Shown: positions 2,172 to 63,274 of the stretch, one piece after another
Layout: every line of letters starts with the position of its first letter
Numbering within the stretch: the stretch's first letter is position 1
From: Ilumatobacteraceae bacterium
GTDB lineage: Bacteria; Actinomycetota; Acidimicrobiia; Acidimicrobiales; Ilumatobacteraceae
Direction of reading: 5' to 3'
Length of the DNA: 64,000 nt
NCBI GenBank assembly: GCA_963716235.1
Contig: CAVQTE010000017.1
Span: 26,295 to 90,294 of the forward strand
Translations under genes and position numbers: made by a program
Notes under the pieces: generated by a model
Told to the model about the DNA's origin: nothing
Database searches by the model: none
What the model saw: only the letters and a program-made list of their open reading frames with translations

Positions 2172-2303
2172 GCGGAACGGTGAAGCGACGCGACACGAAC
2201 ATGCCGGTTGCCGAACCGAGGCTACCTCGTGTGGGGTGTCGGTGTGCGCGGCATCCGGGCTGCCACCACCCCGCCGCCATCGAGCACTACGGTCGGCGGC
2301 GCC

Positions 2304-3632
2304 ATGTTCACCCGGAGGTCGCTGGCGGCCGCACTTCTCGTCATCGCGACGGCAGGCGGCCTGTGTGCAACCACTCCGGTCGCGGTTGCGCAGACCGAGG
2401 GACTGCGCCCGCTGGCAGAGGCGTCAGGGCTGAACTTCGGCACTGCGGTGACCGTCGGCGCCGTCACCACCGAGCCCGACTACCGCGAACTCGTGGTCGC
2501 GAACGTCAACATGGTCTCGACGGTCGACGAAGTGGATTTCGGGATCGTGCAGCCCGAGCCCGGCGTCTTCGACTTCAACCGCGGCGACACCCTCGTCGAG
2601 TTCGCCGAGCAGGAGTCGATGCCCGTTCGCGTTCACGAACTCATCAGCTCCGACGGTCTCCCGGACTGGCTCGTGAACGGGACCTGGACCGCCGAGACCC
2701 TCAGCGCCGTGCTGCGCGATCACATCACGGCCGTCGTGGGTCACTTCGCCGAGGAGTACCCCGGGGTCGTCACACAGTGGGACGTCGTCGACGATGCGTT
2801 CCTCCCCGACGGCACGCTGCGGAACAACATCTGGCACCAGGTGATCGGTGACGACTACATCCGGATCGCGTTCGAGGCGGCTCGCGCTGCCGACCCCGAT
2901 GCCCTGCTGTTCTACGACGACTTCTTCGATGACCTCACCGTCGCCCAGGATGCCGTCGCCAGCGGCGCGGCGATCGCGCCCGGCGCCACGGCGGACCGGT
3001 CGTCGTGTGACGACATCCCCAAGTGCGTGGCCGTGAGAGGGCTGATCTCCGACCTGCTCGAGGCGGGCGTCCCCATCGACGGTGTCGGATTGCAGTCACG
3101 CTTGGCGTCGCCCGAGCCGGCGGATCTCGCCACATTCGCCGGCTGGGTCGAGGGGCTCGGCCTCCAGTGGGCGGTCACCGAGTTCGATGTGCCGCTCCCG
3201 TACACCGAGATCCAGAACCCGGAGTCGCTGGCGTTCCAGGCAGAGGCCTACGCCGACGCACTGGCCGCATGCATCGACGCGGCGTCGTGCGACACGTTCG
3301 TCACCTGGGGCATCACGGACCGTCTGCCACCCGAACCGGACACCACGGGCGGATCGTTCGGCGGAGCACTGTGGTTCGACGTCTTCGACGACCCGAAACC
3401 CGCCTTCGATGCGATGGCAGCAGTCTTCGGGCCGTTGGACCCGGTCACTGCAGCCACCTCCGAGGCAACGACAACGCCCGCCACGACGCCCACGACCACC
3501 GATCCGGGCGGGACTGCCGACCCGGACGACAACGCTCCGATCGCGTTGATGGTCGGGGTCGCCGCACTTGCGCTCGTCGGCGTGGTCGTACTGTTGCTGC
3601 GTCGCCGTGCCGGCGGACGATCACCGAGCTGA
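2304..3632 (+). CDS. GH10 (xylanase-fold) family protein, secreted, with C-terminal membrane anchor
   Basis: Signal peptide MFTRRSLAAALLVIATAGGLCATTPVAVAQ starts at ATG 2304. The GH10-like blocks are FGTAV, WDVVDDAF and VTEFDV. A Thr/Pro-rich linker is followed by a terminal TM helix (IALMVGVAALALVGVVVLLLRRR). The ORF-track start 2208 lies upstream of the signal peptide. Confidence 0.75.
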   Translation: MFTRRSLAAALLVIATAGGLCATTPVAVAQTEGLRPLAEASGLNFGTAVTVGAVTTEPDYRELVVANVNMVSTVDEVDFGIVQPEPGVFDFNRGDTLVEFAEQESMPVRVHELISSDGLPDWLVNGTWTAETLSAVLRDHITAVVGHFAEEYPGVVTQWDVVDDAFLPDGTLRNNIWHQVIGDDYIRIAFEAARAADPDALLFYDDFFDDLTVAQDAVASGAAIAPGATADRSSCDDIPKCVAVRGLISDLLEAGVPIDGVGLQSRLASPEPADLATFAGWVEGLGLQWAVTEFDVPLPYTEIQNPESLAFQAEAYADALAACIDAASCDTFVTWGITDRLPPEPDTTGGSFGGALWFDVFDDPKPAFDAMAAVFGPLDPVTAATSEATTTPATTPTTTDPGGTADPDDNAPIALMVGVAALALVGVVVLLLRRRAGGRSPS

Positions 3633-3859
3633 CATTCGATCAGGCCCGAGCGCTTCATCGGGCACATGGGCATGTTCACACTCGACCACGTGACGGTGCA
3701 CCTGCGATCGAGCCTGCTGCGACAGCGTGCAGGTCTGCGGACCCCGCATTGCGTCGTGAGATCGCCACATGGAGTCACGAGCGCGTGCCCTTTGGCACTA
3801 TGCAGAGGCCGCTCGGCGGTGCATGATGATAGAAGGTGGGGTGAGCGAAGGGAGGAGAG

Positions 3860-5032
3860 ATGCCTGGTGCCCTGCTACCCGATGTGAAGAGGGCCCGCGA
3901 GTCGGTCGTGCTGGTCGGCACGTTTCCACCGACCGAATGCGGTATCGCCACCTACACAGCGAATCTTCGCGACGGTCTGGAGACGTGTGGCCTCGACAGC
4001 AAGGTGCTGCGACTTGTCGATGACACCGAGGTCGGTTCGGACACCGACCACGTGGTGGGTCATTGGGTGCGAGCCCAGCCCGCAGGAGCAGCATCAGCGG
4101 CTGCGCTTGCGTCCCCGTTCGATTCGGTACTCGTACAGCACGAATTCGGTATCTACCCCGGTGTCGACGGCGTCGATGTGGTCGCCTTCGTGGAGATGTG
4201 TCGTCCTGCGGTGTTCACCGTTCTCCACACGGTGCTCGAGGCCCCGACCAGTTCACAGCATCGAATCGTCGATGCCCTGGTGCGGTCGTCGGAACTCGTC
4301 GTTGTCCACACCGCCGTGGCGGCAGAGCGTCTGTTGCGAGTGCAGGACGTCCCACCGCCCAAGGTCGCAGTCGTGCCCCATGGTGCGACCCCGAACCTGT
4401 CCGCACAACGGCCGCGCGGGTCGGTCGAGCCGATCCTGCTCACGTGGGGTCTGCTCGGTCCGGGGAAGGGGATCGAGCGAGGCATCGAGGCCGTCGCGCA
4501 GATGCGTTCGGCAGGCCTCGACGTCCGCTACGTGGTGGCCGGAGAGACACATCCCAACGTCCTGCTCCGGGAAGGAGAGCGATACCGCGAGTCGCTGCAG
4601 GAGCTGGCCCAGAACCGCGACGTCGCCGACCTCGTCGACTTCTCTGCCGGCTACCGGTCTTGGGACTCACTACGGGCCATCATCCGCAGCGCGGACGTCG
4701 TGCTGCTTCCCTACGACACGCGCGACCAGGTCACCTCCGGCGTACTCGTCGAGGCACTCGCCGCGGGGAAACCGGTGGTCGCGACGGCGTTCCCTCATGC
4801 CATCGAGCTCAGCGCGACCGGCGCCGTCATTGTCGTCGACCATGAATCGCCCGACGGGATTGCATCGACGGTGACGGCAATCCTCACCGATCAGTCCCTT
4901 CGAGCGGCGATGCAAGCCGCCGCTCGAGTCGAGAGCGCCGCCTACGACTGGCCCATCGTTGGTGAACGTTTCCATCGTCTGATGACCGGACCGCTGCAGT
5001 GCGCTACGCAGCGTCGCCAGCTCGCCAGCTGA
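3860..5032 (+). CDS. GT4-family glycosyltransferase
   Basis: 390 aa with an N-terminal VVLVGTFPPTECGIATYT and a GT-B C-terminal half (VVLLPY..QVTSGVLVEALAAGKPVV). A strong SD (GGGAGGAGAG) precedes the ATG. Confidence 0.85.
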   Translation: MPGALLPDVKRARESVVLVGTFPPTECGIATYTANLRDGLETCGLDSKVLRLVDDTEVGSDTDHVVGHWVRAQPAGAASAAALASPFDSVLVQHEFGIYPGVDGVDVVAFVEMCRPAVFTVLHTVLEAPTSSQHRIVDALVRSSELVVVHTAVAAERLLRVQDVPPPKVAVVPHGATPNLSAQRPRGSVEPILLTWGLLGPGKGIERGIEAVAQMRSAGLDVRYVVAGETHPNVLLREGERYRESLQELAQNRDVADLVDFSAGYRSWDSLRAIIRSADVVLLPYDTRDQVTSGVLVEALAAGKPVVATAFPHAIELSATGAVIVVDHESPDGIASTVTAILTDQSLRAAMQAAARVESAAYDWPIVGERFHRLMTGPLQCATQRRQLAS

Positions 5033-45136: not shown

Positions 45137-46705
45137 ATGAGTGGGCTGCTGCGGAGCAACGTCGTCGTTGCCAGCGGCACCGCGCTGTCGAGGATCACCG
45201 GACTGTTCCGGTTGATCATCCTCGGCTACGTGCTCGGCCAGACAGCCCTCTCCGATGCCTACCTGATCGCCAACGAGACCCCGAACATCGTCTACGAGCT
45301 GCTGCTCGGCGGCCTGCTGTCGGCCACGCTCGTGCCGTTGTTCTCGACCTTCGTCGAGACCGACGACGACGAGGCGACGAACGTGGTGCTCACGGTGTCG
45401 GTGACGCTGATGGCGGCGTTGACCGTCGTCGCCGTGATCGCCGCGCCCCTGATCTTCGGGTTGTACTCGGTCAACGTGGCCGACGGCGTCGACGCCGACC
45501 TCTACCGATCGGTCGGAACCACTCTCGCGCGCATCTTCCTGATCCAGATCCTCTTCTACGGACTCGTCGGCCTCGCCAATGCATTCCTGAACAGCCGCCG
45601 ACGGTTCTTCGCCGCTGCCTGGGCCCCGATCCTGCCGAACATCATCATCATCGCGTTCCTGCTGTCGTTGCCGAATCCGGGCTCGGCCGACTGGCAGCTG
45701 GAAGACGTGCTCTCGGACGACCGTCTCCGTTGGACGCTCGGGCTCGGCGCAACGGTCGGGATCGCCACGATGGCGGCCGTGCTCATCCCGGCGATGTTCG
45801 CCACGGGGTTCAAGTTCCGCCCGAACTTCGACGTCCGTCACCCGGCAGTGCGCAAGCTCCTGTCGCTGTCGTTCTGGACCATCGGATTCGTCGTGGCCAA
45901 CCAGGTGGCCCTCCTCGTGGTCCGCAACCTCGCCGAACCCGGATCGAGCGGTGCGAGCGCCTACATCAACGCATTCACCTTCTTCGTGCTCCCCCATGGC
46001 CTCTTGGCGGTCTCGATCGCCACCACGTTCCAACCAGAGATGTCGCGATCGGTGGCGCGCCGCGACCGAGCGGGCTTCGTCGACCAGGCCTCACTCGGCC
46101 TCCGGATGACCGCTCTGTTCACGATCCCGGCGGGTGTGGGGATCTTCGTACTGCGTCAACCGATCATCGGAGCGCTCCTCCAGCGAGGCGAATTCAGTGC
46201 CGCCGATGCCGACGCCGCCCAACGGGCACTGGCCGGGCTGGCTCTCGGCCTCGGTGCATTCTCCATCTACATGTTCGTGCTCCGCGGTTTCTACGCCCAC
46301 AAGGACACCAAGACACCGTTCAAGATCAACGTCGTCGAGAACCTCATCAACATCGTGCTCGCCTTCGTCCTCGTGGATCGCTACGGCGTGCTCGGACTCG
46401 GGCTGGCGTTTGCGCTGGCGTACCTGATCTCGTCGGTGTGGGCGATGCAGGTCCTGAGCTACAAGGTGCCGGGATTCTCCGTGCGTTCGATCCTTGCCAG
46501 CATCGGTCCGATGCTGCTCGCCGCGCTCCTGATGGCCGAAGCGGTGTGGCTGGTGACCAATCAGGTCGGCGGGAACGCCGGTCTCGATGCGGTCGTTCGG
46601 CTCGGCGTGGGTGCTGTCGTGGGAGTCGGCGTCTACCTCGGCGTGTTGTACGCACTCGGCGCCCCCGAACTCGACGCCGTCCGCCGACGCCTCCACCGGA
46701 CCTGA
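45137..46705 (+). CDS. murJ: Lipid II flippase MurJ
   Basis: The start is MSGLLRSNVVVASGTALSRITG, followed by LSDAYLIANETPNIVYELLLGG. The protein is polytopic. Confidence 0.9.
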   Translation: MSGLLRSNVVVASGTALSRITGLFRLIILGYVLGQTALSDAYLIANETPNIVYELLLGGLLSATLVPLFSTFVETDDDEATNVVLTVSVTLMAALTVVAVIAAPLIFGLYSVNVADGVDADLYRSVGTTLARIFLIQILFYGLVGLANAFLNSRRRFFAAAWAPILPNIIIIAFLLSLPNPGSADWQLEDVLSDDRLRWTLGLGATVGIATMAAVLIPAMFATGFKFRPNFDVRHPAVRKLLSLSFWTIGFVVANQVALLVVRNLAEPGSSGASAYINAFTFFVLPHGLLAVSIATTFQPEMSRSVARRDRAGFVDQASLGLRMTALFTIPAGVGIFVLRQPIIGALLQRGEFSAADADAAQRALAGLALGLGAFSIYMFVLRGFYAHKDTKTPFKINVVENLINIVLAFVLVDRYGVLGLGLAFALAYLISSVWAMQVLSYKVPGFSVRSILASIGPMLLAALLMAEAVWLVTNQVGGNAGLDAVVRLGVGAVVGVGVYLGVLYALGAPELDAVRRRLHRT

Positions 46706-57112: not shown

Positions 57113-58453
57113 TCAGTCCGGACGGTTGCCCGACACGGTCATGCGAATACGCAGCGCGTCGATGGCAAACCCGTCCATCCTCAGCACCTCGAACTCGCCG
57201 ATGTCGGTGAGCACTCGGTCGCCCTCCGAGGGAATGTCGTCGAACGCATCGATGACGTATCCGGCCACCGTCTGCCAGTCGCCCTCCGGCAGCTGCACAC
57301 CTGTGAACTCCTCGAAGTGCTCGACCCTGGTCGACCCGCTCATCTGGTAGCTCCCGTCGGGGAGTTGCTCGCACTCACCCAGGCGACGGTCGGACTCGTC
57401 GTCGAAGTCGCCGATCAGCTCCTCGAGAACGTCTTCGAGGGTCACCAGGCCGAGAACGAGGCCATGTTCGTCGATCACCAGTGCGATGTGTTGGCGTTCG
57501 GTCCTCATCTCGAGCAGCAGGTCTTCGAGACCATGGTGCTCGGGAGTGACCATCACGGGGCGAGCCATGCTGCCCGCCTGCGTCGTCGGCCAGATGCCCA
57601 TGTCGAGTCGGATCACGTCCTTCGCGTGGACGAATCCCCGCACGTGGTCGAGATCGCCCTCGTGGATGATCACGCGGGTGCGTCCGGTCCGATGCGCCTC
57701 GGCGGCGACATCGGCCGCAGTCGCCTCCGCGGGAACGGCGACGATGTCACGACGTGGTGTCATTGCATCGGCCGCAGTGAGGCCGGACAACTCGAGCGAG
57801 CGCGCCAGGAGCTGATGCTCGTCGGCCGCAATTCCGCCGCGTCCGGCCGACTCGTCGATCAGCAACAGGAGCTCACTCGGCGAGTGGGCCATCGCTCGTT
57901 CGTCCTGCGGTTCGACACCGACCAGGCGCACCACGACGTTCGCCATCCAATTGAGCAGGCGGATGATCGGTCGAACGACCCGGGCGAACATGCGGAAGGG
58001 TCGCGCCAGGAGAAGTGACGACTTCTCGGGATGGGCGATCGCCCACGACTTCGGTGCCATCTCACCCACCACCATGTGGAGGAAGACGACGATCGACAAT
58101 GCGATGGTGAACGCGATGATGTGGCGAGCCGTATCCGACAGGGTGAACAGCTCGCCGAGTGCGCCCTCGATGATGCGAGCGACAGCAGGTTCGGCAACGG
58201 CACCGAGCCCGAGCGAGCACATCGTGATGCCGAGCTGCGCGCCCGCCAACATCAACGTCAGCTCACGAAGCCCTGCGAGCGCGTGCTTGGCCCGCTTGTC
58301 GCCTTCGACCGCCAGCTGCTCGATGCGCGAGCGACGCGATGCGAGGAGCGCGAACTCGGCGGCGACGAAGAACCCGTTCAGCGCGAGCAGCACGAAGGCG
58401 AGACCGAGACTCGACCAACTGACCTGGATCCCGTCGGACGCGGCGAGCATCAT
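57113..58453 (-). CDS. CNNM/CorC-type hemolysin family protein (DUF21-CBS-CorC_HlyC)
   Basis: The start MMLAASDG overlaps the upstream stop (ATGA). Blocks FFVAAEFALLASRRSRIE, a CBS pair and a C-terminal transporter-associated domain are present. Confidence 0.85.
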   Translation of the reverse strand: MMLAASDGIQVSWSSLGLAFVLLALNGFFVAAEFALLASRRSRIEQLAVEGDKRAKHALAGLRELTLMLAGAQLGITMCSLGLGAVAEPAVARIIEGALGELFTLSDTARHIIAFTIALSIVVFLHMVVGEMAPKSWAIAHPEKSSLLLARPFRMFARVVRPIIRLLNWMANVVVRLVGVEPQDERAMAHSPSELLLLIDESAGRGGIAADEHQLLARSLELSGLTAADAMTPRRDIVAVPAEATAADVAAEAHRTGRTRVIIHEGDLDHVRGFVHAKDVIRLDMGIWPTTQAGSMARPVMVTPEHHGLEDLLLEMRTERQHIALVIDEHGLVLGLVTLEDVLEELIGDFDDESDRRLGECEQLPDGSYQMSGSTRVEHFEEFTGVQLPEGDWQTVAGYVIDAFDDIPSEGDRVLTDIGEFEVLRMDGFAIDALRIRMTVSGNRPD

Positions 58454-59841
58454 CGGTCGCCACGTTCGGCATCGTCGGAGTCCACATCGTCGTCGGTCTC
58501 GGCGATCCGCAACTGCAGACGCTGGATCGCGAATCCGTCGACCTCGAGGACCTCGATCTCGATCCCGTCGACGACGAACGACTCGCCGACCGCCGGGATG
58601 TGCTCGAGGCGGTCGAGGACGAGACCTGCAACGGTGTCGTACTCGCCGTCGGGCAGGTCGAATCCCGTGATCCGCTCGATCTCGTCGGGACGCGAACTCG
58701 CGGCCACCGACCACACGCCGGACTCGATCTCGACGTGCTCACCGCGAGCGCTCGGGTCGTACTCGTCCTCGATGTCGCCGACCAGTTCCTCGACGATGTC
58801 TTCGAGTGTCACCACTCCGGCGGGCCCGCCGTATTCGTCGATGACGACGGCCATCTCGGTGGCGTGCGCACGAAGTTCGGCGAGCACCACGCTCAGTCCG
58901 GCCGCTTCGGGCACGGCCAGGATCTCGCGCACCAGCGACGTCACGGCCGTGGTCTCGTACTCCGTGCGGGGAACGCCGAGGAGGTCCTTCGCGTGGACGA
59001 CGCCGTGGACCCGATCGTCGTCGTCGACCACCGGGAATCGCGAATGCGACGACGACATCAGGTCGCGCAGATCGGCAGCGGTCGCATCGGCGTCGATGGT
59101 GACGACACGGTTCCACGGCACCATCGCGTCGGATGCTTCGAGTTCACCGAAGTCGATGGCCCGCTCGAGCAACTGTGCCTGCAGCAACGTCAAGTGGCCG
59201 CTCTCGGCAGACGAATCGACGATCAGATCGAGTTCCTCGGTCGACACCGCGCCGTGCAGTTCCTCGACCGGCTCGACTCCGACGAGTCGGAGCAGGCGGT
59301 TCGCGGCGCCGTCGAACAGGCGGATCACCGGCCCGGCAACCCGCATGAAGATCCATGTCGATGGAGCCAACGAGCGGGCGACGGGCTCGGGGCGGGCGAT
59401 GGCGAGGTTCTTCGGCGCCAGTTCGCCGAACACCATCTGCGCCATCGTGACGAAGACGAGGGCCAGCACCAGGGCGATCCCGAGCGACGCCGATTCGGGG
59501 ACGCCGGCCGCTTCGAGTACGGGGGCGAAGACCGAAGCGATGGCCGGCTCGGCGATGAAACCGAGGGCCAACGTCGTCACCGTGATGCCGAGTTGCGCTC
59601 CCGACAACATGAAACCGAGTCGCTTGTGGACGTCGATCGCCCGTTTCGAGCGGCGATCACCCTCGCGCGCCTGCTCGACGAACCGACTCCGGCGCGCCGC
59701 CACGAACGCGAACTCCACGGCGACGAAGTAGCCGTTCGCGGCGATCAAGGCGACGACACCGATCAGCCCGAGAGCAGTCAGCACGGCGTCAACTTCGTTT
59801 TCGGTCGGCGGACATGTGTGGCCAGATGTTATCCACACCAC
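58450..59841 (-). CDS. CNNM/CorC-type hemolysin family protein (paralogue)
   Basis: YFVAVEFAFVAARRSRFVE, a CBS pair and a CorC_HlyC domain. The start is uncertain (GTG 59841 or GTG 59784). Confidence 0.8.
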   Translation of the reverse strand: MVWITSGHTCPPTENEVDAVLTALGLIGVVALIAANGYFVAVEFAFVAARRSRFVEQAREGDRRSKRAIDVHKRLGFMLSGAQLGITVTTLALGFIAEPAIASVFAPVLEAAGVPESASLGIALVLALVFVTMAQMVFGELAPKNLAIARPEPVARSLAPSTWIFMRVAGPVIRLFDGAANRLLRLVGVEPVEELHGAVSTEELDLIVDSSAESGHLTLLQAQLLERAIDFGELEASDAMVPWNRVVTIDADATAADLRDLMSSSHSRFPVVDDDDRVHGVVHAKDLLGVPRTEYETTAVTSLVREILAVPEAAGLSVVLAELRAHATEMAVVIDEYGGPAGVVTLEDIVEELVGDIEDEYDPSARGEHVEIESGVWSVAASSRPDEIERITGFDLPDGEYDTVAGLVLDRLEHIPAVGESFVVDGIEIEVLEVDGFAIQRLQLRIAETDDDVDSDDAERGDR

Positions 59842-59876
59842 TCGGCGACCGTGGTGACCCGGCTAGCCTTCCCGCC

Positions 59877-60350
59877 ATGTCAACCTTCCATGAGTTCGAG
59901 ATGACCTCGATCACGGGTGAGCCGGTCTCCTTCGACCAGTTCAGCGGTCAGATCTGTCTGATCGTCAACGTCGCGAGCGCTTGAGGCCTCACGCCTCAGT
60001 ACGCAGGTCTGCGTGCACTTCATGACGACAACGACGACGTGACCGTCCTCGGCTTTCCGTGCAACCAGTTCGCCGGGCAGGAACCGGGATCCGACGCAGA
60101 GATCCTCGAGTTCGCCACCTCGAAGTACGGGGTGACGTTCCCGATGTTCCACAAGATCGAGGTGAACGGCGACGGCGCCGCTCCGCTGTACCAGTGGCTC
60201 AAGGCGGAACAACCCGGCGAGGGCGACAGCACCGACATCACCTGGAACTTCGAGAAGTTCCTGGTCGACAAGGGAGGCAACGTCGTCGCTCGGTTCGGTC
60301 CGACAACCACACCGGAGCAGGTGGCCGAAGCCCTCGACAGCTACCGTTGA
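59877..60350 (+). CDS. Glutathione peroxidase with in-frame TGA (candidate selenocysteine) at the catalytic position
   Basis: My own translation from ATG 59877 reads ...QICLIVNVASA-TGA(59982-59984)-GLTPQYAGL...VLGFPCNQF...WNFEKFLV. The GPx signature is continuous across the TGA. The ORF track has only 60039-60350. Confidence 0.75.
59985..60030 (+). promoter_or_regulatory. Candidate bacterial SECIS element
   Basis: Hairpin GUACGCA-GGUC-UGCGUGC at 59999-60016, 14 nt after the UGA. The apex GCAGGUCUGC resembles the E. coli fdhF SECIS apex. Confidence 0.55.
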
Positions 60351-60375
60351 TCGGGATGATCGGTCGTCGAGCATC

Positions 60376-61527
60376 ATGACGATCGAGTTCACCCACAACG
60401 AACGGCCGACGGTCGGCATCGAGATGGAACTCCACGTGGTCGACCGCGCCACCGGCGACCTCGTCTCGGCCGCCAACGAACTGCTTGCCGAATTGGGGTC
60501 GACCCATCCGGGAGGTGAACACCCGAAGGCCAAGCACGAACTGTTCCAGAGCACGATCGAGATCATCACCGGCGTCTGCGAAACGCCTGCCGACGCCGGT
60601 GACGACCTTCGCACGACCCTCGCCGAGCTTCGTGTCGCCGCCGATCGGCGAGGCCTCGCGCTGATGAGTTCGGGCACCCATCCGTTCGCGCTCGCCCGCG
60701 ATCAGTTGGTGAGCCCCGATCTGCGCTATCACGAACTGATCGAGTCGATGCAGTGGCCCGCTCGTCGGCTCCTGATCTGCGGCTTGCACGTGCATGTCGG
60801 TGTCAGCGATGGCGCTCGTGCGATCGCGATCATCAACGAACTGCGGCGTCACCTGCCGCTGTTCCTGGCGCTGTCGTCGTCGAGCCCATTCTTCGAGGGC
60901 GAAGATTCGGGACTCGCATCGGCACGGTCGAAAGTGTTCGAATCGCTGCCCACCGCCGGGCTCCCGCCACAGCTCGCCGACTGGACCGACTTCGAGGCCT
61001 TCATGTCGACGCTGCTCGACTCGAGGTGCATCAGCTCCATCCGCGAGGTGTGGTGGGACATCCGCCCGCACCCCGACTTCGGCACGGTGGAGTTCCGCAT
61101 GTGTGACGCAACCCCGACCGTGCGCGAGGCTGTGGCGCTCGCCGGACTCGCCCAGACGCTCGTGGCCTGGTGCAATTCCCGCATCGACGACGGCACGCTG
61201 CCCAGTGCGCCGCGCGAGTGGACCGTGCGCGAGAACCGGTGGCTGGCGGCCCGGTTCGGCATCGATGCCGACCTGATCGTCGAGCACCCCGACACCGGGC
61301 ACCCCGATCGGCGATCGGTACGCGACCTTCTGACCGACCTGGTCGACGAACTCGGCCCCACGGCGCAGGGGCTCGGGACGACGGCCCAGCTCGCTGACCT
61401 CCTCACCTTGCTCGACGTCGGCACGAGCGCAACGCTCCAGCGAAAGGTCGTCGAGGCCGGCGGTACGCTCGTCGACGTGGTCCACCTCCTGGTCGACAGC
61501 CTGGCCGCCGACGAACTCCCCTCATGA
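60376..61527 (+). CDS. ybdK: Carboxylate-amine ligase, YbdK/GCS2 family (gamma-glutamyl-cysteine ligase-like)
   Basis: 383 aa with blocks VGIEMELHVVD, LHVHVGV and WWDIRPHPDFGTVEFRMCD. Confidence 0.9.
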   Translation: MTIEFTHNERPTVGIEMELHVVDRATGDLVSAANELLAELGSTHPGGEHPKAKHELFQSTIEIITGVCETPADAGDDLRTTLAELRVAADRRGLALMSSGTHPFALARDQLVSPDLRYHELIESMQWPARRLLICGLHVHVGVSDGARAIAIINELRRHLPLFLALSSSSPFFEGEDSGLASARSKVFESLPTAGLPPQLADWTDFEAFMSTLLDSRCISSIREVWWDIRPHPDFGTVEFRMCDATPTVREAVALAGLAQTLVAWCNSRIDDGTLPSAPREWTVRENRWLAARFGIDADLIVEHPDTGHPDRRSVRDLLTDLVDELGPTAQGLGTTAQLADLLTLLDVGTSATLQRKVVEAGGTLVDVVHLLVDSLAADELPS

Positions 61528-62717
61528 CCACCGTCTCACCCTCACTGGCTGAGTGGCTGAATGAACACGGCGAAGGCCTCATCGCTCTGCGACGCAACCT
61601 CCACGCCCATCCTGAGCTCAGCGGCGCCGAGCACGCGACCACCGAGCTCGTCGAGGAACGACTCCGCCTGGCCGGGCTCGAACCGCGTCGCCTGGCAGTG
61701 GGAACCGGTCTCGTGTGCGATCTCACTCCGACGAACCGCAATGGCGGGTTCGAGCAGCTGCTCGCACTGCGCGCCGACCTCGACGCACTGGCCATGACCG
61801 ACGACAAGGATGTCTCGTACGCCAGCCGACACCCTGGCGTCGCCCACGCCTGCGGGCACGATGTCCACACCACGATCGTGCTGGGCGCGGCGTTGTACTT
61901 CGCCCATCACCGAGACAATCTGCCCGGACCGGTCCGCTTCGTGTTCCAGCCGGCCGAGGAACGGGTACCCGGCGGTGCTCTCGACGTGATCGGCGATGGT
62001 GGACTCGACGGCGTCGGAGCAATCGTCGGTGTGCACTGTGAACCCAAACTCGATGTCGGAACGATCGGCCTCAAGTCGGGCGCGATCTCATCGGCTGCCG
62101 ACATGGCCGTCATCCGGATCGTCGGGCCGGGTGGACACACCGCGCGTCCTGAACTCACCGTCGACCTCGTGTCGCTCGCCGCACAAATCGTGAACGAGCT
62201 TCCAGGACGCGTCGCCGGCCGACTCGACGATCCCACCCAGGTGAAGCTCGTGTTCGGAGCGATCCACGCGGGCGATGCCGCCAACGTCATCCCCACCCAC
62301 TGTGAACTGAAGGCATCGATCCGAACCCCCTCACTCCCGGTCTGGGAGCGCTTACCCGAACTCGTCGAAACCGAAGTCGTGAAGATCGTCGGCGAGTCCG
62401 GTGCTGTCCTCGAGATCGATTACACCCACGGCGTCCCACCGGTCGTCAACGATGCCGACGTCACCGAGACGCTCCTCCGTGCGGCCGTCGACGTGGTGGG
62501 CGCGCATTCGGTCGCCATGGTCGAGCAGAGTTGGGGGGGCGACGACTTCGCGTGGTTCACTCGTGAGGTTCCGGGTACCTATGTCCGCCTTGGCGTGCGC
62601 GACCCGGTCGGTCCCACGCTCGACCTCCACGCCGGCCACTTCGACGTCGACGAACGGTCGATCGCGCTCGGCGTGCGCTTGCTCGTGGGGGCCGTCCACG
62701 AACACTTCCGCACATGA
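61524..62717 (+). CDS. M20 family amidohydrolase (N-acyl-amino-acid/dipeptide hydrolase type)
   Basis: LHAHPELSGAE, ALRADLDALAM and ACGHDVHT. The start overlaps the ybdK stop (ATGA). Confidence 0.9.
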   Translation: MTTVSPSLAEWLNEHGEGLIALRRNLHAHPELSGAEHATTELVEERLRLAGLEPRRLAVGTGLVCDLTPTNRNGGFEQLLALRADLDALAMTDDKDVSYASRHPGVAHACGHDVHTTIVLGAALYFAHHRDNLPGPVRFVFQPAEERVPGGALDVIGDGGLDGVGAIVGVHCEPKLDVGTIGLKSGAISSAADMAVIRIVGPGGHTARPELTVDLVSLAAQIVNELPGRVAGRLDDPTQVKLVFGAIHAGDAANVIPTHCELKASIRTPSLPVWERLPELVETEVVKIVGESGAVLEIDYTHGVPPVVNDADVTETLLRAAVDVVGAHSVAMVEQSWGGDDFAWFTREVPGTYVRLGVRDPVGPTLDLHAGHFDVDERSIALGVRLLVGAVHEHFRT

Positions 62718-63274
62718 ACACCGACACATGGGTGTTCGGTTACGGGTCGCTGGTGTCGCCGACCTCGTTGGCCTCGACCATCGGACGCCAGGTCGCGCCC
62801 GGTGACATCATTGCCGTCCATCTCCACGGGTACGGACGGCGATGGAATTACGGGTCACTGCACCTGCGAGGGGACTGGCGCCACGACGACATCGACGTCC
62901 AGCAGGGTGTGGTCATCTCGCTCGGGCTGGTCCACGCGGAGGGCGAACACTGCAACGGCGTCGCTGTGCGGGTCACCGAGGAGGAGCTCGCCCGACTGGA
63001 TTGGCGCGAACGTGACTACGAGCGAACCGACGTGACGGACCGGATCGAGACCGACCTCGCGGGCCTGCCGATCGTCACCTACGTCCCGCGGCCGAGTGCC
63101 GTCGAGCGATACGAGGCGGCCCGCGACGATCACCGAGCCGCGATCCGACGTTCGTACTGGGATCTCGTCAGTCAGGCGTTCGCCGACCTCGGCGACCACC
63201 ACTCGACGACCTACGCGTCCACCCCCGCCCCGGACGTGCCGGTGCTGGACATGACGTTGTCACTCCTCGGCTGA
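62714..63274 (+). CDS. Gamma-glutamylcyclotransferase (ChaC/GGCT-like)
   Basis: WVFGYGSL N-terminal motif, YGRRWN and LDWRERDYER. The start overlaps the M20 stop (ATGA). Confidence 0.8.
   Translation: MNTDTWVFGYGSLVSPTSLASTIGRQVAPGDIIAVHLHGYGRRWNYGSLHLRGDWRHDDIDVQQGVVISLGLVHAEGEHCNGVAVRVTEEELARLDWRERDYERTDVTDRIETDLAGLPIVTYVPRPSAVERYEAARDDHRAAIRRSYWDLVSQAFADLGDHHSTTYASTPAPDVPVLDMTLSLLG

Follow-up and report, generated by a model that had tools for sequence, protein, structure and literature searches.

A probable bacterial SECIS hairpin in the coding region of a glutathione peroxidase gene from Ilumatobacteraceae

The stretch of DNA analysed here, called the window, comprises 64,000 nucleotides (nt) of contig CAVQTE010000017.1 (assembly GCA_963716235.1, positions 26,295 to 90,294 of the forward strand) from an Ilumatobacteraceae bacterium. 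It carries a gene for a glutathione peroxidase (GPx) with a TGA triplet at the codon of the catalytic residue, and a short hairpin can form in the coding sequence just beyond this triplet. A preliminary description, made from the sequence alone, had likened the hairpin to the selenocysteine insertion sequence (SECIS) of the Escherichia coli fdhF gene. The results presented below make it very probable that the hairpin at 59999-60016 is the bacterial SECIS of a selenoprotein GPx in Ilumatobacteraceae (Acidimicrobiia, Actinomycetota). The features of the locus are collected in Table 1.

Table 1. Coordinates of the glutathione peroxidase gene, its predicted RNA elements and the genes downstream of it (positions in the window)
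Feature	Position	Strand	Content or basis
Possible -10 box TAGCCT	59865..59870	+	TANNNT, 7 nt upstream of the GPx ATG
GPx gene, predicted selenoprotein	59878..60350	+	157 codons, single in-frame TGA
Predicted selenocysteine codon UGA	59982..59984	+	Codon 36, peroxidatic residue in NVASA-U-GLT; alignment with the catalytic cysteine of homologues
Putative small 5' helix UGAGGC/GCCUCA, including the UGA	59982..59998	+	RNAfold minimum free energy structure
Spacer between UGA and hairpin, 14 nt	59985..59998	+	Direct reading
Predicted SECIS, 5' arm GUACGCA	59999..60005	+	Gln41 third base, Tyr42, Ala43
Apical tetraloop GGUC, presumed SelB contact	60006..60009	+	Gly44 codon GGU plus Leu45 first base
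Predicted SECIS, 3' arm UGCGUGC	60010..60016	+	Leu45 bases 2-3, Arg46, Ala47 bases 1-2
GCS2-type glutamate-cysteine ligase / carboxylate-amine ligase	60376-61527	+	Directly downstream of the GPx gene
M20 peptidase	61524-62717	+	Downstream of the GPx gene
ChaC-like gamma-glutamylcyclotransferase	62714-63274	+	Downstream of the GPx gene

When cysteine (Cys) was substituted for the internal stop, the product matched the GSHPx family (PF00255, E = 4.5e-39, 132.8 bits against a cutoff of 27) over residues 4-109, spanning the TGA. The domain, together with the motifs NVAS-x-[C/U]-G-x-T, FPCNQF and WNFEKF, places the protein among the glutathione peroxidases; its active-site stretch reads NVASA-U-GLTPQY, with FPCNQF and WNFEKF further on. 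The gene also terminates with a TGA (60348-60350). The best solved relative was yeast Hyr1/Gpx3 (3cmi, E = 4.7e-45), which aligned from end to end and whose peroxidatic Cys36 coincides with the position of the TGA (U36). Monomeric enzymes of the GPX4 type and of the yeast Hyr1/Gpx3 type (3cmi, 2obi) resemble the window protein in full-length alignment and in the peroxidatic position. Yeast Gpx3/Hyr1 differs in having a resolving Cys82 where codon 80 of the window gene (60115-60117) encodes Ala, so that a thioredoxin-coupled 2-Cys mechanism of the yeast Gpx3 type is unlikely. By homology with the family, U36 would form the catalytic centre together with Q64, W123 and N124.

Direct reading bore out the 7-bp stem with one G-U pair (60000/60015), the GGUC loop and the positions given for GUACGCA-GGUC-UGCGUGC in the preliminary description, with the TGA lying one base before the start of the interval named there. 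The loop begins 22 nt past the A of the UGA. The folding check proposed with the description also returned the claimed structure: in a 59-nt context (-19.0 kcal/mol) both the minimum free energy and the centroid structures of RNAfold contained exactly the hairpin at 59999-60016. The 18-mer alone folded with -8.5 kcal/mol (z = -2.83), and 2 of 200 shuffled sequences folded equally well.

Homologues were sought in one genome per GTDB species, and 80 loci were returned. The top 24 were all from Acidimicrobiia, including Ilumatobacteraceae, the cultured Ilumatobacter nonamiensis YM16-303 (L018), Salinilacustrithrix flava (L008), Aldehydirespiratoraceae and others; in the 23 of them with a recognised active site, the GPx proteins were 63-94% identical to that of the window. 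The active-site codon was TGA in 23 of 23 Acidimicrobiia loci where the motif search found it, the 24th (L017) not being resolved, and TGC or TGT in 56 of 56 loci from other phyla. I. nonamiensis has the same TGA and hairpin as the window. All 23 Acidimicrobiia orthologues had intact frames of 155-162 codons with a single TGA each. Since 17 of the 24 genes (window included) end in TGA, this triplet still serves as a stop codon in these organisms.

In public databases, the gene of the Acidimicrobiia clade with predicted selenocysteine (Sec) is wrongly called and shortened. Some calls are fragments of 103 or 101 amino acids from an internal GTG or ATG, others are 120-amino-acid fragments beginning right after the TGA (P0019, P0057 and P0084 are examples of the C-terminal products), and one full-length call has Trp at the Sec position. 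The JGI protein P0001 shows W at position 36, and its DNA has TGA there.

Constraint on the hairpin was assessed in 24 genome sequences (23 species and the window). Codons 41-46 were CAG TAC GCA GGT CTG CGT in every sequence except for one CGC (CGT in 23/24), and the adjacent codons varied freely. Synonymous entropy at these codons was 0-0.25 bit; 36 other conserved codons of the gene that are suitable for comparison averaged 1.20 bits, and just one of them was as low. GCA (10% usage), GGT (20%) and CGT (15%), which are fixed here, are rarely used in this genome, and their joint probability, given the peptide, is about 9e-5. The 18-nt segment had a mean energy of -8.3 kcal/mol in the Sec genes versus -0.7 kcal/mol in 58 Cys genes. 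No hairpin was present in the 56 TGC or TGT homologues from other phyla, and 12 Cys genes encoding the same QYAGL peptide used other codons and gave no fold. Conservation of the stem in orthologues that keep the TGA, on which the preliminary description had made its proposal depend, extended to all 23 Acidimicrobiia species and to about 100 metagenome variants. Purifying selection at the RNA level is strictly tied to the presence of the UGA.

Metagenomes were scanned with a pattern that fixed only NVA-xx-TGA-G-x-T-x-Q-Y and nothing 3' of Tyr42, and 116 of the 120 matches proved to be GPx genes. The matches of the AGLR type were combined with the genome sequences into an alignment of 105 unique 48-mers (A1), in which the helix was 97.4% paired. 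At the pair 60002/60013, C-G was replaced by U-A in two sequences, where a change of Tyr TAC to TAT accompanied a change of Arg CGT to His CAT. At 60003/60012, G-C was replaced by A-U in two sequences (Ala GCA to Thr ACA with Arg CGT to Cys TGT). The pair 60000/60015 alternated between U-A and U-G (69/36), position 60015 being G or A (Ala or Thr47), and was paired in 105/105. None of these three pairs was unpaired in any of the 105 sequences, and in 500 column shuffles two double-sided pairs were never reached. Compensation in the stem, another point that had been raised for checking, was therefore found as two double-sided pairs plus the U-G/U-A alternation; this covariation is supportive, but not overwhelming by itself. 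As the compensations are nonsynonymous, residue 46 must be set by pairing with codons 42-43, and because base-pairing governs this residue, Arg46 occurs only in the Sec forms, the Cys forms having Glu or Gln. The signal lies inside the reading frame and so dictates protein sequence: the CGU of Arg46 is there because pairing with the ACG of Tyr42-Ala43 requires it.

Two Cys variants of the Sec clade serve as natural controls. L204 (1001-1675) has TGC and encodes the same AGLR peptide; it has drifted to GCC GGG CTG CGC, all of them common codons, and no longer forms the hairpin (-2.5 kcal/mol). L203 (1001-1453) has TGT, is otherwise identical to a Sec sequence and keeps the hairpin intact. The replacement of Sec by Cys in L203 may be very recent, or L203 may be a variant; it resembles what Zhang et al. 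2006 (PMC1794560) described as "fossil SECIS".

Fifteen of the 105 sequences had a second type of apex, which read GCC GGG UUG in 14 of them and ACC GGG UUG in one, the latter with a compensated A-U pair. Compared with GCA GGU CUG, the second type involves three simultaneous synonymous changes that keep the lower six pairs and leave the loop CGGGUU; the metagenome loci with this apex include L094, L130, L138, L141, L147 and L151. Other metagenome GPx genes with TGA had a motif of the LN[AE]L[QLH] type after QY, were often of low GC content and showed no conserved hairpin past the TGA (L089, L098, L116, L122, L140, L145, L150, L185, L189, L190, L195 and L197). These genes may be eukaryotic, with a SECIS in the 3' untranslated region, or may use a different bacterial SECIS. 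Two further loci, L114 and L129 (QYLQLQAL), had a different local hairpin, CCUGC-AGUU-GCAGG.

The SECIS of E. coli fdhF, the archetypal bacterial element (RF01988, SECIS_2), is likewise located in a coding region directly 3' of a catalytic-site UGA. The fdhF sequence on which the comparison was based proved correct: the 41-nt query TGACACGGCCCATCGGTTGCAGGTCTGCACCAATCGGTCGG matched annotated fdhF with at least 99% identity in 5,413 E. coli genome records. The apical 10-mer GCAGGUCUGC is, as had been claimed, the same in the window hairpin and in fdhF. The apex GCA-GGUC-UGC common to both consists of an A-U closing pair, the GGUC tetraloop and two pairs beneath, and in both elements seven nt precede the loop on the 5' side.

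The hairpin also agrees with the published constraints for bacterial SECIS elements in general (bSECISearch model, Zhang and Gladyshev; PMC13188914), which are a loop of 3-9 nt, a stem of 4-16 bp, 16-37 nt from the UGA to the loop, a free energy of -7.5 kcal/mol or lower and, in the first two loop positions, a G with usually G or U next to it. The corresponding values are a spacing of 21 nt, a loop of 4 nt, a stem of 7 bp, -8.5 kcal/mol and a loop starting with GG. The GG was invariant in 105/105 sequences, although it is also imposed by the Gly codon. Of the four hairpins in the window with a stem of 7 bp or more and a G[G/U]NN tetraloop, only that of the GPx gene was in a long open frame; the three others lay outside open reading frames and were dismissed.

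The window contained two copies of GCAGGTCTGC, at 60003-60012 and at 3729-3738, where 0.18 would be expected, and at least two copies were found in 1 of 100 shuffles. The second copy, present where it had been reported, is on the forward strand in the spacer of 227 nt that separates a gene of the GH10 xylanase type (2208-3632) from one for a GT1 glycosyltransferase (3860-5032). It was rejected as a SECIS and regarded as a chance match, being intergenic, with a stem of only 4 bp and without the context of a coding UGA. When 1.3 Mb of sequence was searched for this apex in further selenoprotein genes, 15 matches other than GPx came up, all of them out of frame.

The use of selenocysteine is documented in relatives of the organism. 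Tables S1-S3 of Peng 2016 (PMC5029168) give both Ilumatobacter coccineus and I. nonamiensis YM16-303 as SelD+, SelA+ and SelB+, with 15 and 10 known selenoproteins, respectively, and the same study lists Sec-GPx in 13 bacteria. In the sister order Actinomarinales, selA, selB, selC and selD have been reported from all 84 complete genomes, and the Rfam SECIS models fail there (2026 preprint). Ilumatobacter is missing from the supplement of a tRNA-Sec survey (PMC5330540). The bacterial Sec-GPx-like proteins (PF00255, UxxT; e.g. Treponema denticola Gpx) belong to the same family as the window protein and share the U-G-x-T motif. They show the same Sec/Cys dichotomy as the window clade, the Cys homologues being far more abundant. 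This family is graded "predicted with high confidence" in the literature and is biochemically uncharacterised. No published description of the Acidimicrobiia Sec-GPx clade, its SECIS or its variants was found in the literature.

Binding of SelB to the hairpin and actual incorporation of Sec would be expected here by analogy with E. coli and Moorella. According to this paradigm, the hairpin would fold within the coding mRNA, and the SelB of this lineage, loaded with GTP and Sec-tRNA(Sec), would attach through its C-terminal domain to the GGUC loop on the A-U closing pair. With the UGA at 59982-59984 in the A site, the base of the hairpin 14 nt downstream would be positioned at the mRNA entrance of the ribosome. 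The tethered SelB could then deliver Sec-tRNA(Sec) in competition with RF2, and selenocysteine would occupy position 36, which holds the peroxidatic side chain in the catalytic centre of the GPx.

Several observations weigh against the assignment of the hairpin as a SECIS. The bulged U of fdhF (U17) is missing and the stem is a continuous helix of 7 bp. The spacer is 14 nt compared with 11 nt in fdhF; the loop begins at +22 instead of +19, one codon further, as the preliminary description had stated. The extended lower helix of the fdhF type is absent, and the host gene and the phylum also differ. The U17 bulge and the loop G23/U24 of the fdhF minihelix are reported as SelB determinants in E. 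coli (PMC8659212); of a minimal fdhF-type SECIS, the window element has the apical GGUC loop on G-C, C-G and A-U pairs and has neither the bulge nor the 11-nt spacing. The Rfam scan of positions 59800-60400 gave no match to a SECIS family at E <= 10, and a scan of the whole window gave no SECIS, just two ordinary tRNAs. As E. coli fdhF, the positive control, scored 87.1 bits with RF01988 and 35.8 bits with RF01989 (SECIS_3), the window element must lie outside these Rfam families. The term fdhF-like is therefore justified for the SelB-binding apex only, and not for the bulged U, the spacer, the lower part or Rfam membership; the resemblance is functional and is not evidence for common descent. 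SECIS models, which had also been proposed as a check, gave a divided answer, the generic constraints agreeing with the hairpin and the Rfam covariance models giving no match. The generic constraints are themselves unspecific, as 158 of the 1,446 UGA triplets of the window (11%) satisfied them in an ungapped implementation; the window is GC-rich. The earlier statement that such a structure is hard to explain by chance is thus weak for the structure alone, and it is the position at a catalytic-site UGA and the comparative data that lift the case above chance. As to the machinery, no tRNA-Sec was found by ARAGORN in the window and 24 loci, and no selA, selB or selD by tblastn of E. coli SelA, SelB and SelD in the window and about 200 loci, so that we infer the Sec competence of this particular organism from its relatives and the literature. 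Finally, the compensatory changes are found in two plus two sequences and could go back to just two evolutionary events. One further candidate, a 91-nt "tRNA-Asp" (anticodon atc) predicted by ARAGORN at 46525-46615 (+), is not a tRNA-Sec; it lies inside long open reading frames, was unconfirmed by the Rfam tRNA model and was taken as a false positive.

The conservation of the hairpin could also be explained if it served the mRNA in some other role, for instance by pausing the ribosome, stabilising the message or modulating termination by RF2, and if the UGA were read without SelB and a SECIS, e.g. by a near-cognate Trp or Cys tRNA. The lack of the fdhF-type bulged U and of an Rfam match would be consistent with this, as would the fact that binding of SelB is argued from analogy, and the bias for U before the UGA (71/111) and for the CCU codon of Pro40, described below, hints at additional context effects. 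However, the hairpin is missing in the 58 Cys homologues and has decayed in a Cys derivative with the same peptide (L204), a proven SelB site has the same loop and closing pairs, the spacing agrees with the SECIS consensus, and the genus possesses SelA, SelB, SelD and other selenoproteins. Such another role is accordingly considered improbable.

Two other explanations are less probable still. The stem could be a by-product of the peptide QYAGLRA and of codon usage, with the TGA marking a lesion in a pseudogene, a mistake in the assembly or the place where two open reading frames meet; this would agree with the public gene callers, which split the gene into 103- and 120-amino-acid C-terminal products. 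Against it, the TGA is kept in 23 species and more than 100 independent metagenome contigs with the frames intact on both sides, the codons that have become fixed are rare, the same peptide is encoded by other codons in Cys genes, and the nonsynonymous changes are compensated in the RNA. In addition, the 103-amino-acid fragment alone cannot make a GPx fold, the catalytic residue being N-terminal to it. We therefore regard a by-product or lesion as very improbable. Hardly credible, finally, is a reassignment of TGA throughout the genomes of the lineage, e.g. to Trp or Gly. The W at position 36 of P0001 would point in this direction, but a TGA stands in the underlying DNA, whose translation with the bacterial code does not give the query, and the GPx gene itself is among the 17 of 24 genes that terminate with TGA.

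The sequence around the UGA appears to carry further information. Two pairings of the UGA are possible, one with CCUCA upstream of the hairpin, as in the minimum free energy structure (76% paired in the 105 sequences), and one with CU[U/C]CA downstream of it (87% paired), and neither candidate for a lower helix showed convincing covariation in these sequences at columns free of coding constraint. Pro40 (59994-59996) was encoded by CCU in 53 of 87 Pro-bearing sequences, compared with a usage of 6-9% elsewhere, Ala35 (59979-59981) was encoded by GCU in 41 of 44 Ala cases, and a U stood right before the UGA in 71 of 111 sequences. These biases indicate that the context of the UGA is selected beyond the hairpin. 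A rather speculative and probably incorrect extension is that the UGA lies in a second 5' mini-helix (UGAGG with CCUCA of Pro40-Gln41) stacked on the SECIS, which together with the preference for a preceding U would form an undescribed "UGA-masking" module. If true, such a module would tune the access of RF2 or the positioning of SelB and offset the spacer that is longer by one codon. Given the apex identical to that of fdhF, the element might be used directly by E. coli SelB.

The mechanism is known, the bacterial Sec-GPx is recognised as a computationally predicted family and Ilumatobacter is a known user of Sec, so the result is no surprise to a specialist and does not overturn current understanding. 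Its value for annotation is that an abundant group of aquatic and soil actinobacteria would have an unrecognised selenoenzyme for peroxide defence. The locus is also a clean natural case of an RNA signal writing a protein, Arg46 being replaced by His or Cys in just those sequences where the bases paired with it have changed as well. That the same apex is present in E. coli fdhF, in another phylum, suggests that the recognition code of SelB is widely shared, and a compact natural SECIS of 18 nt without a bulge is a candidate for the production of recombinant selenoproteins.

In most of the 24 species, a TANNNT sequence preceded the start codon by 6-8 nt, and six others had a GGAGA Shine-Dalgarno sequence, a pattern that suggests a leaderless GPx mRNA in many lineages. 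Only 36 nt separate the GPx gene from a divergent CNNM gene. Upstream, at 57113-59841 on the reverse strand, are two tandem genes of the CNNM/CorC type (CNNM, CBS and CorC_HlyC domains), which are kept beside the GPx gene in L001-L005, L014 and L018. The three genes that follow on the forward strand (60376-63274) are probably co-transcribed with the GPx gene and constitute a gamma-glutamyl / glutathione-type cluster in an actinobacterium. Their order is kept in L001-L005 and L014, and in I. nonamiensis the ChaC gene comes right after the GPx gene.

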